A stretch of DNA of 64,000 nt from a virus. The stretch's first letter is position 1. Every line of letters begins with the position of its first letter. The stretch covers positions 1 to 64,000 of the IMG/VR virus record IMGVR_UViG_3300027769_000020; one strand, written 5' to 3'. A model generated the notes under the pieces. That model searched no databases. It was not told where the DNA came from and saw only the letters and a list, made by a program, of their open reading frames with translations. This document shows, in pieces, positions 2,639 to 28,964 of this stretch. The position numbers were made by a program, and so were the translations under genes.

Positions 2639-3841
2639 TTATAATTCTAACTTGATAACCTTACCTGGTAGGTCTGTATTCATATATGATTGTTCAGACA
2701 GCACCCATAAAATAGGAGCTTTAGGTTTAACGCTTGTATAGCATTCACCATCAGTAAAATACACCAAGCTAGTATATTTTCTTATATTTTCATTATAATA
2801 TTCAAGGACGGGATCAAATTCAGTCCCACCTCTACCATATATCTTAATTTCATTTTTACCTTTATACGGCTCTATACTCTTAATAGCCGTATCACACTGA
2901 ACTATTGTAATATCAACACCTTGTTTATAGATGTGATGTATCTCATTCATGAACTCATGTAATTCTTTATCACATACAGAACCTGAAGTATCAATAGCCA
3001 ACAACATATGTTGTTTCATTTTAATCTTTAGACCAGGATTTTCAGAATATCTTCTATTCTCTTTTCTCCTTATCTTTTTAGTATACACTTTAGATGATAC
3101 ACCAGTAAATCTTCTGATATAACCTTTCCAATCAAACTTAGGTGGAGTGATTGCCTCCATTTCAAGTAAGCCCTCAATTTCTCCAGGAACATTACCTCTT
3201 TTCTTTTCAGTCATTTCCTTAGCATCATTGAGAATCTTATTCAATTGCTTCTCAATTAGCTTCTGTTCAGCCTCAGTTAAATCTTCAAAATCAGACCATG
3301 TTGGATGATCACTTGGCATACCGTCACCAGAGTCCATCTGATCACACAATTTGTCAAAGTTTTCATCACCACTAGTTCCATCTTCACCACCTTTGTCTTT
3401 CTGTTCTTTAGCTTGTTGTAGTTTCTCATAATAATATCTACAACCAGCTTTTCTGTCTAAGTTTAAATCAGGATAATCATCTATATTGATACCACCTTCT
3501 GGGAGATAATCTGTATCAATATACTGATTGATCTCCATATCCATTGCAACATTAGCAAGCTTCTTATCACTAAACTTAAAATACATAGTCAAATGACCAA
3601 ATGCAATATGCAAAAGCTCATGTTTAAGTAATCCAAGTTTGTGATCTTCACTTAATCCTGTCCAGAATTCTTCATTAATAGTAAGCTGATAATTAATATT
3701 ATGTTTACTAACACCAGCAGTAGGAACTTTTTTATTATCCCATACTTTATTCAACATAATTAAAAAGAACCCATAATAAGGCTCCTTTAACATTAAGTCT
3801 TTACTGGTTTTTGCTAAACTATCTTCTCTAGTTTTAGTCAT
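2639..3841 (-). CDS. VWA-domain protein with N-terminal HExxH metallopeptidase-like domain (MoxR partner)
   Basis: HELLH; MIDAS DTSGS; GRGGT; YFTDG; adjacent to AAA ATPase. Confidence 0.85.
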   Translation of the reverse strand: MTKTREDSLAKTSKDLMLKEPYYGFFLIMLNKVWDNKKVPTAGVSKHNINYQLTINEEFWTGLSEDHKLGLLKHELLHIAFGHLTMYFKFSDKKLANVAMDMEINQYIDTDYLPEGGINIDDYPDLNLDRKAGCRYYYEKLQQAKEQKDKGGEDGTSGDENFDKLCDQMDSGDGMPSDHPTWSDFEDLTEAEQKLIEKQLNKILNDAKEMTEKKRGNVPGEIEGLLEMEAITPPKFDWKGYIRRFTGVSSKVYTKKIRRKENRRYSENPGLKIKMKQHMLLAIDTSGSVCDKELHEFMNEIHHIYKQGVDITIVQCDTAIKSIEPYKGKNEIKIYGRGGTEFDPVLEYYNENIRKYTSLVYFTDGECYTSVKPKAPILWVLSEQSYMNTDLPGKVIKLEL

Positions 3842-6060: not shown

Positions 6061-6309
6061 TTATGCGTTTCCTTTTGGTACAATAGTTATTGGATTCACA
6101 AATGTTTCTTCAACTTTAAAAATCTCACTTAACATTTTAATCACAGCATCTTGTTCATGAATTGGTGTATTATCTCTTAATGCGTCTACTAATGAACCAA
6201 TAGTTGATGCAATATGAACTGCAGTTACACCTTCTATCTTTACATTTTTATTAAACTCATAAGGTTTATCTTTTTCAAATTTAAACTTAATTGTTATTTT
6301 ACCTTTCAT
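6061..6309 (-). CDS. Hypothetical protein
   Basis: ORF overlapping primase end. Confidence 0.6.
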   Translation of the reverse strand: MKGKITIKFKFEKDKPYEFNKNVKIEGVTAVHIASTIGSLVDALRDNTPIHEQDAVIKMLSEIFKVEETFVNPITIVPKGNA

Positions 6310-7285
6310 GTATTGCTTGTTTTAATAGTGGAAATATCTCCTCTTTTACTTTTTGTATACCATGTACTTTAATAGAATCAGATACATCTTTCTCCATGTT
6401 TAATATGATATAGTTAAGACCATATCTTTCTTTATACTTTTTCATAGAATTTATACCGGCTTCATCATTATCAAATAGTATACATATGCTTTGATACTTT
6501 TCTTTTAGCTTATCAATACTTGACTCTTTTATCAATGTATTCTCACTATCTGGTGCAATACACTCAATATTACTGAATCCAAGCTTGTTAAATGCCATAA
6601 TATCCTTTAAAGATGAAGTAATAACAAGATACTTTTTAGTTAGTGTTAACTGTTCAGAACCCTGTATATAATTACCTAGCTTAAGGAATTTTTTATTTTG
6701 ATTTTTTGGCTGATAGATTTTATATAATGTACCATCATTTTTAAAATAACCATATAAGTTAAAACCATTTATAGTTATCTCAGTAATTTTACCATCAGGT
6801 TCAGTACGTGATAGTTTATAATACTCTAATGGAGATACGTTATATGCATCTAGCATCTTTGAACCTATATGATAATCACCCCAATACTTTTGATCAAAAT
6901 TACTCCAATGTCTTATTGTGTAATCAGAAACCTTAAATGTATCATAATGCTTAATCTCAGGCATTTCATATGTCTTATTATCTTTAAGATACTGCTTATA
7001 ATCATCAATAACTCTGAATATAGCAAGTCTTCTATCAAGACTAAACATATTTTCTATCAGTGATACAGAATCACCTTGAAGACCTGATGAAAAATCTTTA
7101 TACTTATAAGTCATAGTATTAACATCTACGTAAATATACATAGATGGAGTTTTCTCAAGTTTAAATACAGATCTTATCTTAATCTGTTGTCCATCTAATT
7201 TTTCAGTAAGATTTAAATAGTGTTCAAATATCCATGTGACTGGTACGTCACCTATTGAAACAGCATTACTTTTTGTAGAAATCAT
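6299..7285 (-). CDS. DNA primase (TOPRIM), crAss-like type
   Basis: YKDFSSG..GD; ITSSLKD; LFDNDEAG; KDVSD. Confidence 0.8.
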   Translation of the reverse strand: MISTKSNAVSIGDVPVTWIFEHYLNLTEKLDGQQIKIRSVFKLEKTPSMYIYVDVNTMTYKYKDFSSGLQGDSVSLIENMFSLDRRLAIFRVIDDYKQYLKDNKTYEMPEIKHYDTFKVSDYTIRHWSNFDQKYWGDYHIGSKMLDAYNVSPLEYYKLSRTEPDGKITEITINGFNLYGYFKNDGTLYKIYQPKNQNKKFLKLGNYIQGSEQLTLTKKYLVITSSLKDIMAFNKLGFSNIECIAPDSENTLIKESSIDKLKEKYQSICILFDNDEAGINSMKKYKERYGLNYIILNMEKDVSDSIKVHGIQKVKEEIFPLLKQAIHER

Positions 7286-7342: not shown

Positions 7343-8029
7343 TTAGTCTAAATCAAAGTCAGTAGCTGCCTTGCTTGATACTGCAAAATCATCATCATCA
7401 TTACCAAAAGCTTCTACTTTTTTAGCTTCTAGTTTTTTAAGATGTAAAGCTTCAGAATATAGTAATTGTTTACCTGATCCAAGTTTAGCAAATGCAAACC
7501 CGTCTCTAGAAGATTTAGGCAAATATAAGTCATAATTTGTATAACCTGTTTTACCTTCATATTCTTTACCTGCAATACAGAAATCCATAAACTTATCTTT
7601 ATATGGTGCTGTAGTATTAAATGCAGAGATAAAATCTTCTATAGTATCATGTTTGTTATCTTGTTCATCAAACCAAGCTAACATATCTAATGTAGTACAA
7701 ATAGATTTTAAGAATACTAAAATAGAGTTATCTCTATAGATTTTTACACCAGACTTAGTAGTACCATCAGCAAATGCATATTGACCTGCTTTTACTCTAC
7801 CAATTTGACCAGCATAGTGACCTAAAGACTCATTGTCTTTATCAATCATAAAACCTTCAAACCCTTCAATAGGCTCAGTCTCAACATTCAAGATTATCTG
7901 TAATGCACCAGGAATAAACTTAAAATCTTCAGCTATAAGACTGTTAATTTTTAATTTATGATTACCTGGTGTGATTGTTTTAGGTAACCCATTACCACCT
8001 GCGTTTACATCTTTAGTTCCAATTGCCAT
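7343..8029 (-). CDS. Putative single-stranded DNA-binding protein
   Basis: Lies between Sak4-like ATPase and primase; ITPGNH motif; acidic C-tail DDDDF...DFDLD. Confidence 0.5.
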   Translation of the reverse strand: MAIGTKDVNAGGNGLPKTITPGNHKLKINSLIAEDFKFIPGALQIILNVETEPIEGFEGFMIDKDNESLGHYAGQIGRVKAGQYAFADGTTKSGVKIYRDNSILVFLKSICTTLDMLAWFDEQDNKHDTIEDFISAFNTTAPYKDKFMDFCIAGKEYEGKTGYTNYDLYLPKSSRDGFAFAKLGSGKQLLYSEALHLKKLEAKKVEAFGNDDDDFAVSSKAATDFDLD

Positions 8030-8052: not shown

Positions 8053-8781
8053 TTATTTATATACTTCTTCCCAGTGAGTTACTACCTCACCCTTTTCATT
8101 AACTTCACTAATTACTACTTCTGCATTTCTTAAATGATCAGGTCTAGCACCACAAGTTGTTTCATCATTAGTTTTAAAACTTAATACAACCTTGTTACCT
8201 TTTCTAAACATGTAACCAATAGCATCAGCATTTGCACAAATCAAAGATTTAATCTTACCAGTTAAATCAATATTAGCAGCCATTACCATCTCACCTTTAT
8301 CATCAACTTGTTTGTCTTTGATATGACCAGATAAAATAATGTGGTCAGCTAACTTATCAACATAGTTTAATACGTCAAAGAAAGCTTCTCTTATATACAA
8401 ATAACCTGCACCATTTGGTAATGTAATTACACTGTCTCCATCATAATTTTTACCCATAGGTGTTGCTTTGTACTTCTTTACAGCTAATGGCATAACCATT
8501 TCTTCTAATGCAGTTACAGTATCAATAGTGATAAACTTATAAGGTTTACCTGCTTCTTCTACTGCTTTACCAATTGCTAATAGTTCTTTCAAACTACTTG
8601 CTTTTACTTTTACTGCATCAACATAGTCAGTACCATTTTCCAAATCAATGATTAAATTACCATCTAAACCTGCAAAAGCTGTTGTTTTACCAGTCTTGGG
8701 TTTAGAGTAGATAACTAATCTTTTTGGATTCTGTCTTGTTGCACTTACCTTTTTAGTAGGCAATACTAATCCTTCACTCAT
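8053..8781 (-). CDS. AAA_24/Sak4-like ATPase (recombination)
   Basis: YSKPKTGKTT Walker A; IDLENG; IDTVT; ADAIGY. Confidence 0.8.
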   Translation of the reverse strand: MSEGLVLPTKKVSATRQNPKRLVIYSKPKTGKTTAFAGLDGNLIIDLENGTDYVDAVKVKASSLKELLAIGKAVEEAGKPYKFITIDTVTALEEMVMPLAVKKYKATPMGKNYDGDSVITLPNGAGYLYIREAFFDVLNYVDKLADHIILSGHIKDKQVDDKGEMVMAANIDLTGKIKSLICANADAIGYMFRKGNKVVLSFKTNDETTCGARPDHLRNAEVVISEVNEKGEVVTHWEEVYK

Positions 8782-9354: not shown

Positions 9355-10362
9355 TTATTTGGTTTTAAGTTTTTTTTCTTGTTGAGCAGGAGTATTCATT
9401 TCTGATATACTCATCTTTTCAAATTCTGCCTTAAAGAAACTCATTCTTGTATCACCATTTCTACATTTAAGAAAGTGTAATACTAATACCCTATCATTAT
9501 CTATGATATATCTATCAGGGCCATAGAATTTAATCTTTTGTTTAGCTGGTCTATTAATACCAACTACTGTATCTGCATGCTGTAATAAAGCATCAGCACC
9601 AAAGATATCTGATTCTAATACATAATTTCCATATTTACCATCCTCTGCTCTTTCAGGATTATCAATATTTCTATTTAACTGACTCAATATGATAAAAGCT
9701 ATTGGGTACATTCTTTTAAGCTCAGTGAATGCCTCACCAAGATTGTTTAACATTTCATTCTTATCTCTTTCAGTCTGTGCTTTTTTAACAAGTACTGAGT
9801 GATCCAGTGACATTAGTGTCTTCTTATACTTTCTAACACCATTCTCATCAACAGTAGAGTGATATGACATATACTGATGAATAATACTCTTTAATTCATC
9901 TACAGTACATGGTTTTTCTACTACATCAATTGGATACTTGACTTTTTCTTTAGCATAATCATAGCATTTCTGTAAATCTTCTGGAGACAATGATCCATCA
10001 GCACTACATAAATATTTATATGACTTACCAATTATACTAGAATATTCTCTAATAGCAGAAGACCTAGCTAACATCTCAAATTGAAACTGTAAAACTCTAA
10101 AGTCTTCAGCAGGGTTTAGTTTAAAAGATTCTCTTACTATTTGTTCTACAATCAATGTCTTACCACTTGCTGGTCTTCCACCAATTACAGTAATAGTATT
10201 CCATTCAATACCATCAGTAGTTGCATCATTAAACTTAGGCCATGGAGTTCTAAGACTTTTAATGTCTCCTACCATTCTACCTTTTAAATAATGCAGTGAC
10301 TCCTGAAAGCCTTCTTTCTGACTATTCCACCTGAGTTTTTCTTCTTTCTGTTTAAGAGACAT
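9355..10362 (-). CDS. dnaB: DnaB-like replicative helicase (C-terminal domain)
   Basis: GGRPASGKT; FEM; LSQLNR; KCRNG. Confidence 0.9.
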   Translation of the reverse strand: MSLKQKEEKLRWNSQKEGFQESLHYLKGRMVGDIKSLRTPWPKFNDATTDGIEWNTITVIGGRPASGKTLIVEQIVRESFKLNPAEDFRVLQFQFEMLARSSAIREYSSIIGKSYKYLCSADGSLSPEDLQKCYDYAKEKVKYPIDVVEKPCTVDELKSIIHQYMSYHSTVDENGVRKYKKTLMSLDHSVLVKKAQTERDKNEMLNNLGEAFTELKRMYPIAFIILSQLNRNIDNPERAEDGKYGNYVLESDIFGADALLQHADTVVGINRPAKQKIKFYGPDRYIIDNDRVLVLHFLKCRNGDTRMSFFKAEFEKMSISEMNTPAQQEKKLKTK

Positions 10363-11620: not shown

Positions 11621-12490
11621 CTATCCCATTTTTCTCATGTTTCCATGAGGATCGGACTATATCATCACTTATCTTTATCATAAGTGGAGGATGCTCTGGG
11701 CTCACCTTAGTGTCCCTAGTCTCTGAACCTTCCCTGATCTTCCCCAGGGCTCGGCTGCTGATTGGCATAGGCGGACTGCCCTTAGCTTTCCAGCAATTCT
11801 TCCTCTTTACCCAGGACCCATTTATATGCTAAACAATCTATTTTATAAGGTTCAATAATATCTAAAAACTTTTGACAATCATATGTACTTATTCTAATAA
11901 TATTTGAATAAGTCATTCTTGCACAGTTTACATTCCATTTAGATTTAATTATATCAATAAGAAAATCAACGTCATCACCTAAAAAAGACTGAGTATTTAA
12001 CTCAATATGTGGTGATCTTTTTTTTCTTCTTGAAATATTTCCATCATCCATGTACCAAATTGCTAATGCAAATTCATCCATCATACATATATCATCTTTA
12101 TTTATTTCTTTAATTGTGTTATAATAAAGACTTCTATATTCTGAAAAAATTGGATGCGTTTTACTTTTAAAATGATAACTAGTGCATTCTCCTGTTTTAT
12201 ATCTACTTGACTTAGCAATTCTTTTATTAATTGCACCTGAAAGTAAATAATTTTCAAGAAAAGCATGTTTCCATTCTAAATAAGCTTTTTGTTTATGTCC
12301 ATGACCAAAAGTCATTCTATAGTTTTTACTTTTTTCCTCTTTTTTAGGAATTGACCCATCTCCAAGTAGAGAACCTCTAATAAATTGTTGTAACACATTC
12401 AATTTACTAATTGGAATTTCAATATATTTTGTATTTTTCATATACAAATATATACTTTATTGTCCAATTATGCAAATTAATTGCCGTTTA
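11621..12490 (-). mobile_element. Group I intron in ung
   Basis: Begins TAA after GAU, ends G; P AATTGCTGGAAA, Q AATCAGCAG, R TTCAGAGACTA, S GATATAGTCC; IGS GTCCTG pairs with CAGGAU. Confidence 0.93.
11782..12441 (-). CDS. Intron-encoded LAGLIDADG homing endonuclease (two-motif)
   Basis: IRGSLLGDGSI and LAIWYMDDG; probable ATG 12441; TATATTTG box at 12445-12452 (-). Confidence 0.9.
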   Translation of the reverse strand: MKNTKYIEIPISKLNVLQQFIRGSLLGDGSIPKKEEKSKNYRMTFGHGHKQKAYLEWKHAFLENYLLSGAINKRIAKSSRYKTGECTSYHFKSKTHPIFSEYRSLYYNTIKEINKDDICMMDEFALAIWYMDDGNISRRKKRSPHIELNTQSFLGDDVDFLIDIIKSKWNVNCARMTYSNIIRISTYDCQKFLDIIEPYKIDCLAYKWVLGKEEELLES

Positions 12491-27700: not shown

Positions 27701-27931
27701 GGTATTATAATTAATAACAGTTATAAAATGGTAAGACAAAAAAAGAGAGAGAGTATTAAACTCTCTCTCAATGTTGCTGGCTAAAGCCTGTTCCGGTACT
27801 TACATCTCCAAAGCTATAAGGAGAACGCCTCTGACTTGAAACATAATGAGTATTGATAGAGATCATTAGTTCACTCTATCCATAATAGTTAAAAAATGGA
27901 TTAAGACAAAGAGAGATAACCTCTCCTTTCA

Positions 27932-28078
27932 TCAGAAAGGGAGGTCATCTTCATCAATATCATATGTATAATTCTCAAGGCTATCCATAGCCTCAAGAGT
28001 TATACGCATCATATCATTGTAATAGTCTTGCTCCTCTTGGAGCATGATATTAATATCATTGAATTCAGTATCACGCAT
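27932..28078 (-). CDS. 48-aa acidic early peptide ending in EDDLPF (SSB C-tail-like)
   Basis: MRDTEFNDINIMLQEEQDYYNDMMRITLEAMDSLENYTYDIDEDDLPF; missed by ORF track. Confidence 0.75.
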   Translation of the reverse strand: MRDTEFNDINIMLQEEQDYYNDMMRITLEAMDSLENYTYDIDEDDLPF

Positions 28079-28278
28079 AATATATAATTTTAAAGTTAAT
28101 AACAGTTATAAGATGGTTAAATAAAAAAGAGAAACACCCGAAGGTATCTCTCTTGCTTTCTCCTGATCTTGCCAAAGCTAAGCTCAAATGATGTGTGTTT
28201 ACATAACATACACATCATTCATTATAATTTATAAACAGTTATAAGATGGTAAAGAAAAAAACATAAGAGCCTAAGCTC

Positions 28279-28455: not shown

Positions 28456-28492
28456 AGTGTGTAATTTTTAATTAAATTAAGTTAGAAAATGG

Positions 28493-28633
28493 TTGCCTTG
28501 CGCAGCAAGCATGGGGGGTACCACCTCTGGCTTCAGGGGGTGGGGGTGTTGTAGTAGGGGTCCATCACAAAGCCCTACATATATAAATTCCCCTAGCCGT
28601 AAGTTCATCACACCTGGGGTGAAAATAACCCGC
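28493..28633. other. GC-rich island at the divergence of the two arms
   Basis: G-tracts G6/G5/G5/G4 and hairpins in an AT-rich genome. Confidence 0.6.
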
Positions 28634-28663
28634 AAAAGTTATTGTGTATTGTACCAATGTTAT

Positions 28664-28735
28664 TATATTTGTACTAATTAGTTTTTAAATTTTATTGTTA
28701 TCATTAATCCTCAGATGTATGTCTGGGGATTTTTG
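28664..28735 (+). ncRNA. Promoter-short U-rich RNA-terminator unit 1
   Basis: TATATTTG, ~30 nt, AATCCTCAGA-TGTATG-TCTGGGGATT-TTT. Confidence 0.45.
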
Positions 28736-28744
28736 TTTAAGATA

Positions 28745-28935
28745 TTACTCCTGTGTTCAAGTAGCACAGGTCCAGTACCAGTTAAGCATCCCATAAGATC
28801 TGCTTGTTGGTCTTCTCTGCTCAGGAAAGTGGAATTGATTTATAGGTGTAAACGCGTTACCTCTATAAGCAACCATATAACTGCAGCAACCCCAAGTAAG
28901 TTTCTCTGATCAGGAAATACTGCTTGGGTTTTTTT
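28745..28935 (+). ncRNA. Candidate structured RNA
   Basis: Serial hairpins ending in CCCAAG..CTTGGG-T7 terminator; no credible ORF. Confidence 0.4.
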
Positions 28936-28964
28936 ATTTATATTTACAAGATAAAATTAATATT

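Follow-up and report, generated by a model that had tools for sequence, protein, structure and literature searches.

The window analyzed here, 64,000 nucleotides long, corresponds to the initial 64 kb of an IMG/VR virus record of 91.5 kb, which has a G+C content of 31% and an estimated completeness of 76%. On its minus strand, a 48-codon open reading frame (ORF) at 27932..28078 starts with an ATG and ends with a TGA (27932-27934) that is immediately doubled by a second one. It encodes a small peptide whose C-terminus reads DIDEDDLPF. The last six codons (27935..27952, minus strand) specify EDDLPF, a tip conserved among the peptide's homologs and found at the very end of bacterial SSB-family proteins. 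With 15 acidic residues (D/E) against two basic ones (K/R), the product has a net charge of about −13 and a pI of about 4. A preliminary description of this locus had already pointed to a 48-residue acidic peptide ending in an SSB-type C-terminal tail, and both points are borne out by the ORF translation, by the charge count, and by the identity of the last six residues with those of SSB tails.

This ORF is the only one, out of 964 of at least 20 residues in the 91.5-kb record, to end in [ILMV]PF, and the chance of finding EDDLPF at the end of a random ORF, as estimated from base composition, is about 1e-6. Neither strand has another long ORF across 27932..28078 that would compete with it. The exact 48-residue sequence is present in public protein collections, where it is nameless; the Pfam search of the peptide gave no family, its look-alikes in the ESM Atlas all scored below 0.8, and BLAST of phage genomes produced no useful match. 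Two trivial origins were considered and rejected. A split or truncated SSB gene is at odds with the in-frame TAA found 10 codons upstream, inside the cassette motif described below, and with an upstream region that holds no OB-fold coding sequence but only an ORF-poor cassette and a 58-residue hydrophobic ORF. Stop-codon recoding that would lengthen the ORF was dismissed as well, the large genes being intact under translation table 11 and the stop being a TGA TGA doublet.

Genomic Setting and Cassette Architecture

The terminase, portal and major head proteins of the record have low-identity matches to crAss-like phages of Flavobacterium, Bacteroides, and Cellulophaga, while giant ORFs, one of them with a DFDGD motif, occupy its far end. 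From these matches and giant ORFs, the host of this crAss-like phage probably lies within the Bacteroidota. The minus-strand arm is devoted to replication, and carries genes for a primase (6299-7285), a Sak4-like annealing protein, two helicases, of which one is DnaB-like and one lies at 9355-10362, a ParB-like protein, and three proteins like homing endonucleases. The latter, all on the minus strand, are of the GIY-YIG/HNH (1391-2140), HNH (2639-3841), and LAGLIDADG (11782-12447) types and are surrounded by stretches that lack long ORFs; introns or inteins may split the replication genes.

The peptide gene stands at the head of this arm, beside the intergenic region from which the two arms diverge. 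It is part of an array whose short units share the same layout: a motif ACCATYTTATAACTGTTAT, then a short ORF or an ORF-poor stretch, and finally a hairpin followed by a T-run. Seven copies of the motif (at most four mismatches) are found between 25.7 and 28.25 kb, all on the minus strand, against 0.19 expected by chance. The promoter-like copy belonging to the peptide, ACCATCTTATAACTGTTAT, occupies 28099..28117 (minus strand), 20 nt upstream of the ATG; the spacing between motif and ATG is 18-20 nt in the three cassettes with a clear ORF, namely that of the peptide and those of two neighbors with clear protein genes. Terminator-like sites are also crowded, with 17 of them between 25 and 29 kb versus 1.4 expected. 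In the ORF's own terminator hairpin (27905..27961, minus strand), the last five codons make up the 5′ arm and the loop contains the stop codon, with a U-rich tract coming after. Its folding energy is −28.7 kcal/mol (z −6.3), and none of 200 shuffled sequences was as stable. The claim that the peptide has a motif/terminator cassette of its own therefore stands. On the other side, the terminator of the preceding ORF-poor cassette (28127..28154, minus strand) is made of a 12-bp stem, a UUCG loop and a T-run (−16.5 kcal/mol, z −2.9), and is predicted to insulate the peptide unit from upstream transcription.

Position and cassette layout suggest that the 48-residue peptide is probably made early. 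In phi14:2, the sole crAss-like phage studied, early genes are transcribed by an injected virion RNA polymerase, and no common motif was found among them (bioRxiv 10.1101/2020.03.07.982082). The intergenic region that separates the two divergent arms (28456-28964) is itself a relatively G+C-rich non-coding element. Long identical stretches of it recur in two related contigs (L121, 4676-5233; L122, 2960-3520), despite a ThyA identity of only 73-74%. No match to it was found in Rfam; its function could be that of a conserved RNA, of an origin, or of a regulatory element.

Coding Potential and Predicted Structure

Codon usage was assessed with a log-odds score trained on 51 long ORFs of the phage genome. 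The peptide ORF scores +0.27 per codon, where real 48-codon chunks score 0.41±0.15 and spurious ORFs nested in other frames −0.30±0.30, with 4.8% of the spurious ones reaching the value of the peptide. The neighboring genes of 86, 98, and 103 residues are in the same range (0.26-0.32), while values of −0.18 and −0.43 are obtained for the ORFs in cassettes A and B, the ORF-poor ones on either side. These flanking cassettes (27745-27881 and 28127-28231, both on the minus strand) have the same motif and strong terminators, and their negative codon scores are consistent with small early RNAs rather than proteins. As for the 48-codon ORF, its codon usage, the amphipathic helix and the 48-residue variants described hereafter, and the spacing between ATG and motif make translation likely.

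AlphaFold2, run on a single chain with an eight-sequence alignment, predicts one helix spanning residues 2-43. The pLDDT is 91-93 over residues 11-30, with a mean of 56 over residues 41-48; the last five residues are non-helical in the model, and the tail is of low confidence in this single-chain, eight-sequence prediction. The amphipathic part, as delimited from the model and from the hydrophobic moment, covers about residues 2-39 (27962..28075, minus strand). The hydrophobic moment of the helix is 0.36, compared with 0.14±0.07 in shuffled sequences (p 0.002). Because the model consists of one helix and a low-confidence tail, the peptide lacks an OB fold. This agrees with the earlier claim that there is no room for one, as do the length of 48 residues, the charge of −13 and the lack of a Pfam match. 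The hydrophobic residues F6, I9, L13, Y20, M23, A30, L34, Y37, and I41 are in a heptad-like register, and the modeled helix is therefore likely to self-associate or to bind a partner.

Relatives of the peptide are few. Nine sequence variants were found in public metagenomes, grouped in eight protein clusters; all are exactly 48 residues long, they are 77-100% identical, and the substitutions among them are conservative. Hydrophobic positions are invariant in 17 cases out of 20, as opposed to 12 out of 28 for polar ones (Fisher p 0.006), the three hydrophobic changes being M/V, L/I, and I/V. Within the tail, D44, L46, P47, and F48 are invariant in the eight-sequence alignment, D45 is replaced by E only, and residues 40-43 are variable. 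The terminal PF, whose invariance among homologs the preliminary description had proposed to look for, is thus constant in all those found. The family is however narrow and shallow (eight clusters, at least 77% identity), so that conservation of the tip hardly exceeds that of the whole peptide, and the tip codons, which double as the 5′ arm of the terminator, may be under an additional constraint at the nucleotide level.

An exhaustive phmmer search of 1.8 billion representatives returned nothing beyond this family except P0009, a 1656-residue repeat protein that was discarded as a repeat-driven artefact, and no relative was retrieved by peptide alignment in viral and metagenome contig collections. 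The two related contigs mentioned above, L121 and L122 (ThyA 73-74% identical), contain neither a tail-bearing ORF nor the cassette motif. They retain the flanking 88-residue gene and the conserved intergenic element, and other small genes replace the array. Since the peptide is missing there, its gene appears from these comparisons to be a clade-specific accessory gene in a variable array, within a fast-changing region.

The C-Terminal Tip in Bacteria and Viruses

How specific, then, is the EDDLPF tip? Bacterial genomes were scanned, with one genome per prokaryotic species, for E-D-D-[L/F]-P-F followed by TAA, which yielded at least 120 loci; about three-quarters of the first 80 listed belong to Bacteroidota and about one-fifth to Bacillota. 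Among the matches listed, 119 ORFs of at least 20 residues end in EDD[L/F]PF, of which 67 are PF00436 and 41 are DUF3127 proteins. Once their last 12 residues are removed, jackhmmer unites the two sets in a single group of 108 OB-fold proteins. Three further ORFs are SSB fragments (due to a locus edge or an internal start), which brings the SSB family to 108-111 of the 119 ORFs among the matches listed, and the exceptions among those matches are a protein kinase, a Hypoth_Ymh protein, and a few short ORFs. The hexapeptide is therefore more than 90% diagnostic of the SSB family in cells, among the matches listed. Judged by these sequences, it is typical of Bacteroidota, the expected host phylum; that the host SSB itself ends in EDDLPF is an expectation at the level of the phylum, which is as far as the host is placed.

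The DUF3127 proteins (PF11325) deserve a mention of their own. They are found in Bacteroidota, are about 110-130 residues long and have the EDDLPF end (L001, L019, L071, and 38 others). On this sequence basis they seem to form a second family of small, SSB-like OB-fold proteins with a connection to the SSB interactome. As for the bacterial non-SSB proteins with the same end, the kinase has 281 residues (L064, 97-942, plus strand) and the Hypoth_Ymh-domain protein 370 residues (L113, 4353-5465, plus strand).

The picture on viral contigs is more varied. Canonical SSB-like proteins make up 59 of the 229 ORFs ending in EDD[L/F]PF, the remainder being other scaffolds that include gp32-like and SpoVG-like proteins and several unnamed families of 70-320 residues. 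Since so many viral scaffolds bear it, the host-type tip behaves in phages as a portable module. One uncultured virus, for instance, encodes a gp32-like (T4-type) SSB with the bacterial-type EDDLPF tip (L145, 6946-7845, plus strand). Closest in design to the 48-residue peptide is a 45-residue acidic-helix microprotein ending in EDDLPF, found on two contigs (L292, 1957-2094, minus strand; L351, 4750-4887, plus strand). The two microproteins have no detectable similarity beyond the tail, and sequence comparison indicates that the association of a helix with this tip arose at least twice. On L351, the 45-residue microprotein is located just upstream of an ORF with a ThyX-like motif, as judged by eye.

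A Candidate SSB Encoded by the Phage

No PF00436 domain was found anywhere in the 91.5-kb record. Directly downstream of the Sak4-like gene (8053-8781, minus strand) lies a gene for a 228-residue protein (7343-8029, minus strand) with more than 850 homologs and a conserved acidic tail, ...FGxDDDD...SDFxLD. This protein has no sequence match in Pfam, PHROG, or the PDB. The matches to its modeled fold (mean pLDDT 64) are mainly OB-fold ssDNA-binding proteins (PrgE, Cdc13, RPA, Rim1, PriB, and bacterial SSBs), with weak scores (Foldseek E no better than 0.012, VIA Z at most 5.4). From the model, the 228-residue protein probably represents a family of crAss-type phage SSBs that is paired with Sak4. 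The genes ssb and sak4 are commonly neighbors, and Sak4 recognizes the six terminal residues of the SSB that is cognate to it (PMC5928155). As the probable SSB of the phage has a different tail, the host-type tip of the 48-residue peptide is best seen as a separate device.

A Free SSB Tip and Its Possible Uses

The SSB tip is a hub that guides more than 12 bacterial replication, recombination, and repair enzymes to ssDNA, and blocking it harms cells. The explanation that best fits the locus, with a probability of roughly 0.45, is that the ORF is a translated accessory microprotein, a stand-alone SSB-Ct mimic that docks on tip-reading enzymes, most likely as a competitive decoy. The preliminary description had proposed such a decoy, titrating host replication and repair enzymes or SSB-sensing defense proteins, and the analysis gives partial support to that interpretation. 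Its sequence suggests that the peptide probably plugs into SSB-partner enzymes. It would be made of one amphipathic and very acidic helix, followed by a flexible tail that ends in a copy of the host-type SSB-Ct. Because the peptide has no DNA-binding fold, the tip would be offered free in solution to the pockets that read it. By analogy with E. coli, the targets could be RecQ, RecJ, RecO, PriA, RecG, Ung, topoisomerase III, primase, and the clamp-loader chi. Competition for these would uncouple host replication restart, repair, or SSB-dependent surveillance from ssDNA, and meanwhile the phage would replicate with its own helicase, primase, Sak4, and OB-fold SSB of different tail. Three considerations favor inhibition: the carrier cannot bind DNA, the accessory gene sits among presumed early host-takeover genes and outside the replication module, and the phage brings its own replication proteins. 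In E. coli, free SSB-Ct peptides bind their partners only at micromolar affinity, and a decoy would therefore need a high copy number or avidity.

The invariant, heptad-spaced hydrophobic face of the helix suggests self-association, which would lead to a multivalent, SSB-tetramer-like display of tips. A bolder version of the decoy, which we consider speculative, would be a coiled-coil oligomer that displays several host-type tips and so imitates, free of DNA, the tail cluster of an SSB tetramer. At the beginning of infection, such an oligomer would shut the host SSB interactome, with its replication restart, recombination repair, and SSB-dependent defense sensors, off ssDNA, or else act back on the early transcription carried out by the injected virion RNA polymerase. 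In vitro, the virion RNA polymerase of phi14:2 transcribes single-stranded or denatured DNA, and it may need the host SSB, a dependence known from phage N4. If the oligomeric version were true, the peptide and the unrelated 45-residue family would represent a new class of phage effectors that mimic short linear motifs.

Could the tip recruit rather than compete? The helix face might bind a phage component (the OB-fold SSB, Sak4, the primase, or a helicase) or a host one, and the tip would then bring host SSB-partner enzymes in trans. An adaptor of this kind fits the data about as well as a decoy does. The invariant hydrophobic positions of the helix (17/20) suggest a specific partner, and the candidate phage SSB (7343-8029, minus strand), which ends in ...SDFxLD, lacks a host-type tip of its own. 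In viruses, moreover, EDDLPF is mostly found on DNA-handling scaffolds (canonical SSB, gp32-like), where it plausibly serves for recruitment, and reading of the last six residues of a cognate SSB is known for Sak4 (PMC5928155). Against this, the peptide gene is about 20 kb away from the replication genes, in a hypervariable accessory array, and close relatives lack it although they have the SSB-like gene. An adaptor belonging to the core replisome ought to occur more broadly than in eight clusters, when the SSB-like protein has more than 850 homologs. An adaptor, though plausible, is less probable than a decoy.

Another possibility is that the product of the cassette is an early RNA with a defined structure, as may be the case for its two ORF-poor neighbors; if so, the frame would be untranslated or irrelevant and its SSB-like tail a chance reading of a terminator arm. 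The cassette RNA folds at −66.2 kcal/mol, compared with −35.6±4.2 in shuffled sequences (z −7.4), and the antisense strand reaches a z of −6.9. Taken alone, the peptide coding sequence has z values of −4.5 to −6.7. This is stronger than in cassettes A and B (−2.0 and −3.9 for the ORF-poor cassettes), and the neighboring 123-residue gene is at −0.9. Inverted repeats crowd the coding sequence between 27905 and 28098 (minus strand), where three hairpins lie inside it in addition to the terminator. The sequence may both encode a protein and act through its structure, termination may be coupled to translation, or the hairpins may have a function at the DNA level. The strong structure of the coding sequence, a feature that the preliminary description had missed, is what keeps a non-coding or dual-function reading alive. 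To this are added the paired and buried position of the start codon in the predicted fold and the use of the tail codons as the 5′ arm of the terminator. Abundant early non-coding RNAs are described in the crAss-like phage phi14:2 (bioRxiv 10.1101/2020.03.07.982082). On the other hand, Rfam has no match for the cassette at the gathering score, with only sub-threshold noise at E up to 1, and RNA structure and coding are compatible with each other. The codon usage of the peptide is gene-like, in contrast to the negative scores obtained in cassettes A and B, its amphipathicity (p 0.002) goes along with selectively invariant hydrophobic positions, nine out of nine variants have exactly 48 codons and differ by conservative substitutions, and a chance EDDLPF would be expected at the end of about one ORF in a million. 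A product acting as RNA only is thus unlikely.

Small acidic early inhibitors are common in phages, and include phi29 p56, PBS2 Ugi, T7 Ocr, and T7 gp5.9. With its net charge of −13 on a 48-residue helix, the peptide might be one more such protein with another job, either as a DNA or nucleic-acid mimic blocking some host enzyme that binds DNA or as an inhibitor acting on a single host protein through its helix, LPF being then incidental or a degradation tag. A C-terminal LPF, as in SsbA, is reported to suffice for degradation by ClpXP in some Streptococcus mutans strains, although this degron is described as strain-specific and as unrecognized in other bacteria (PMC5143411). This explanation is improbable, since the tip matches over six residues out of six, well beyond LPF, and the hexapeptide is over 90% SSB-specific in bacteria among the matches listed. 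As to similarity with known DNA mimics, the peptide has no sequence relative among them, and a lone helix is not meaningfully fold-searchable.

Comparison with Known Systems

The most direct comparison for a stand-alone SSB-Ct mimic is with the bacterial SSB-Ct itself. In E. coli the SSB tail is ...DFDDDIPF, and tails in ...EDDLPF are those of Bacteroidota and Bacillota SSBs and of DUF3127 proteins. The peptide shares the last six residues of the latter exactly, and places them in the same way, at the extreme C-terminus, after an acidic stretch; the tail that bears them may be flexible. The difference lies in the carrier, which is a 40-residue acidic helix in place of an OB fold or any other DNA-binding domain; docking on the same enzymes is what the likeness of sequence would imply.

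Phage and plasmid ssDNA-binding proteins (canonical SSBs, gp32-like proteins and further small scaffolds on IMG/VR contigs, and the SSB of HK620) share with the peptide a host-type SSB tip on a protein from a mobile element. In HK620, the last six residues of SSB recruit Sak4 (PMC5928155). These tip-bearing proteins are 70-320 residues long or more and some belong to recognized families (gp32-like, SpoVG), whereas a peptide of 48 residues with a charge of −13 cannot plausibly bind DNA. The 45-residue microprotein of L292 and L351 is the nearest parallel, as it has the same short acidic helix and an identical tip and is also located among small phage genes, but it is of independent origin and belongs to a different phage group. 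In open-access papers and bioRxiv full text, no description of a phage-encoded free SSB-Ct mimic was found.

Finally, the peptide resembles phi29 p56, PBS2 Ugi, T7 Ocr, and T7 gp5.9 in that it is small, very acidic, presumably early, and accessory, although no sequence or fold relation to any of these was found. All four act by occupying the binding site of a host enzyme. They mimic DNA by a folded surface, whereas the 48-residue peptide would mimic a short linear peptide motif. Such mimicry is well known for eukaryotic viruses, and the peptide, if the proposal is true, would be an example of it in phages. A DNA-free copy of the tip made by a phage would then amount to a minimal natural means of inhibiting or hijacking the entire SSB hub, in crAss-like phages whose early biology is largely unexplored. 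The SSB-Ct motif is known; the new aspect is its minimal, non-SSB carrier.
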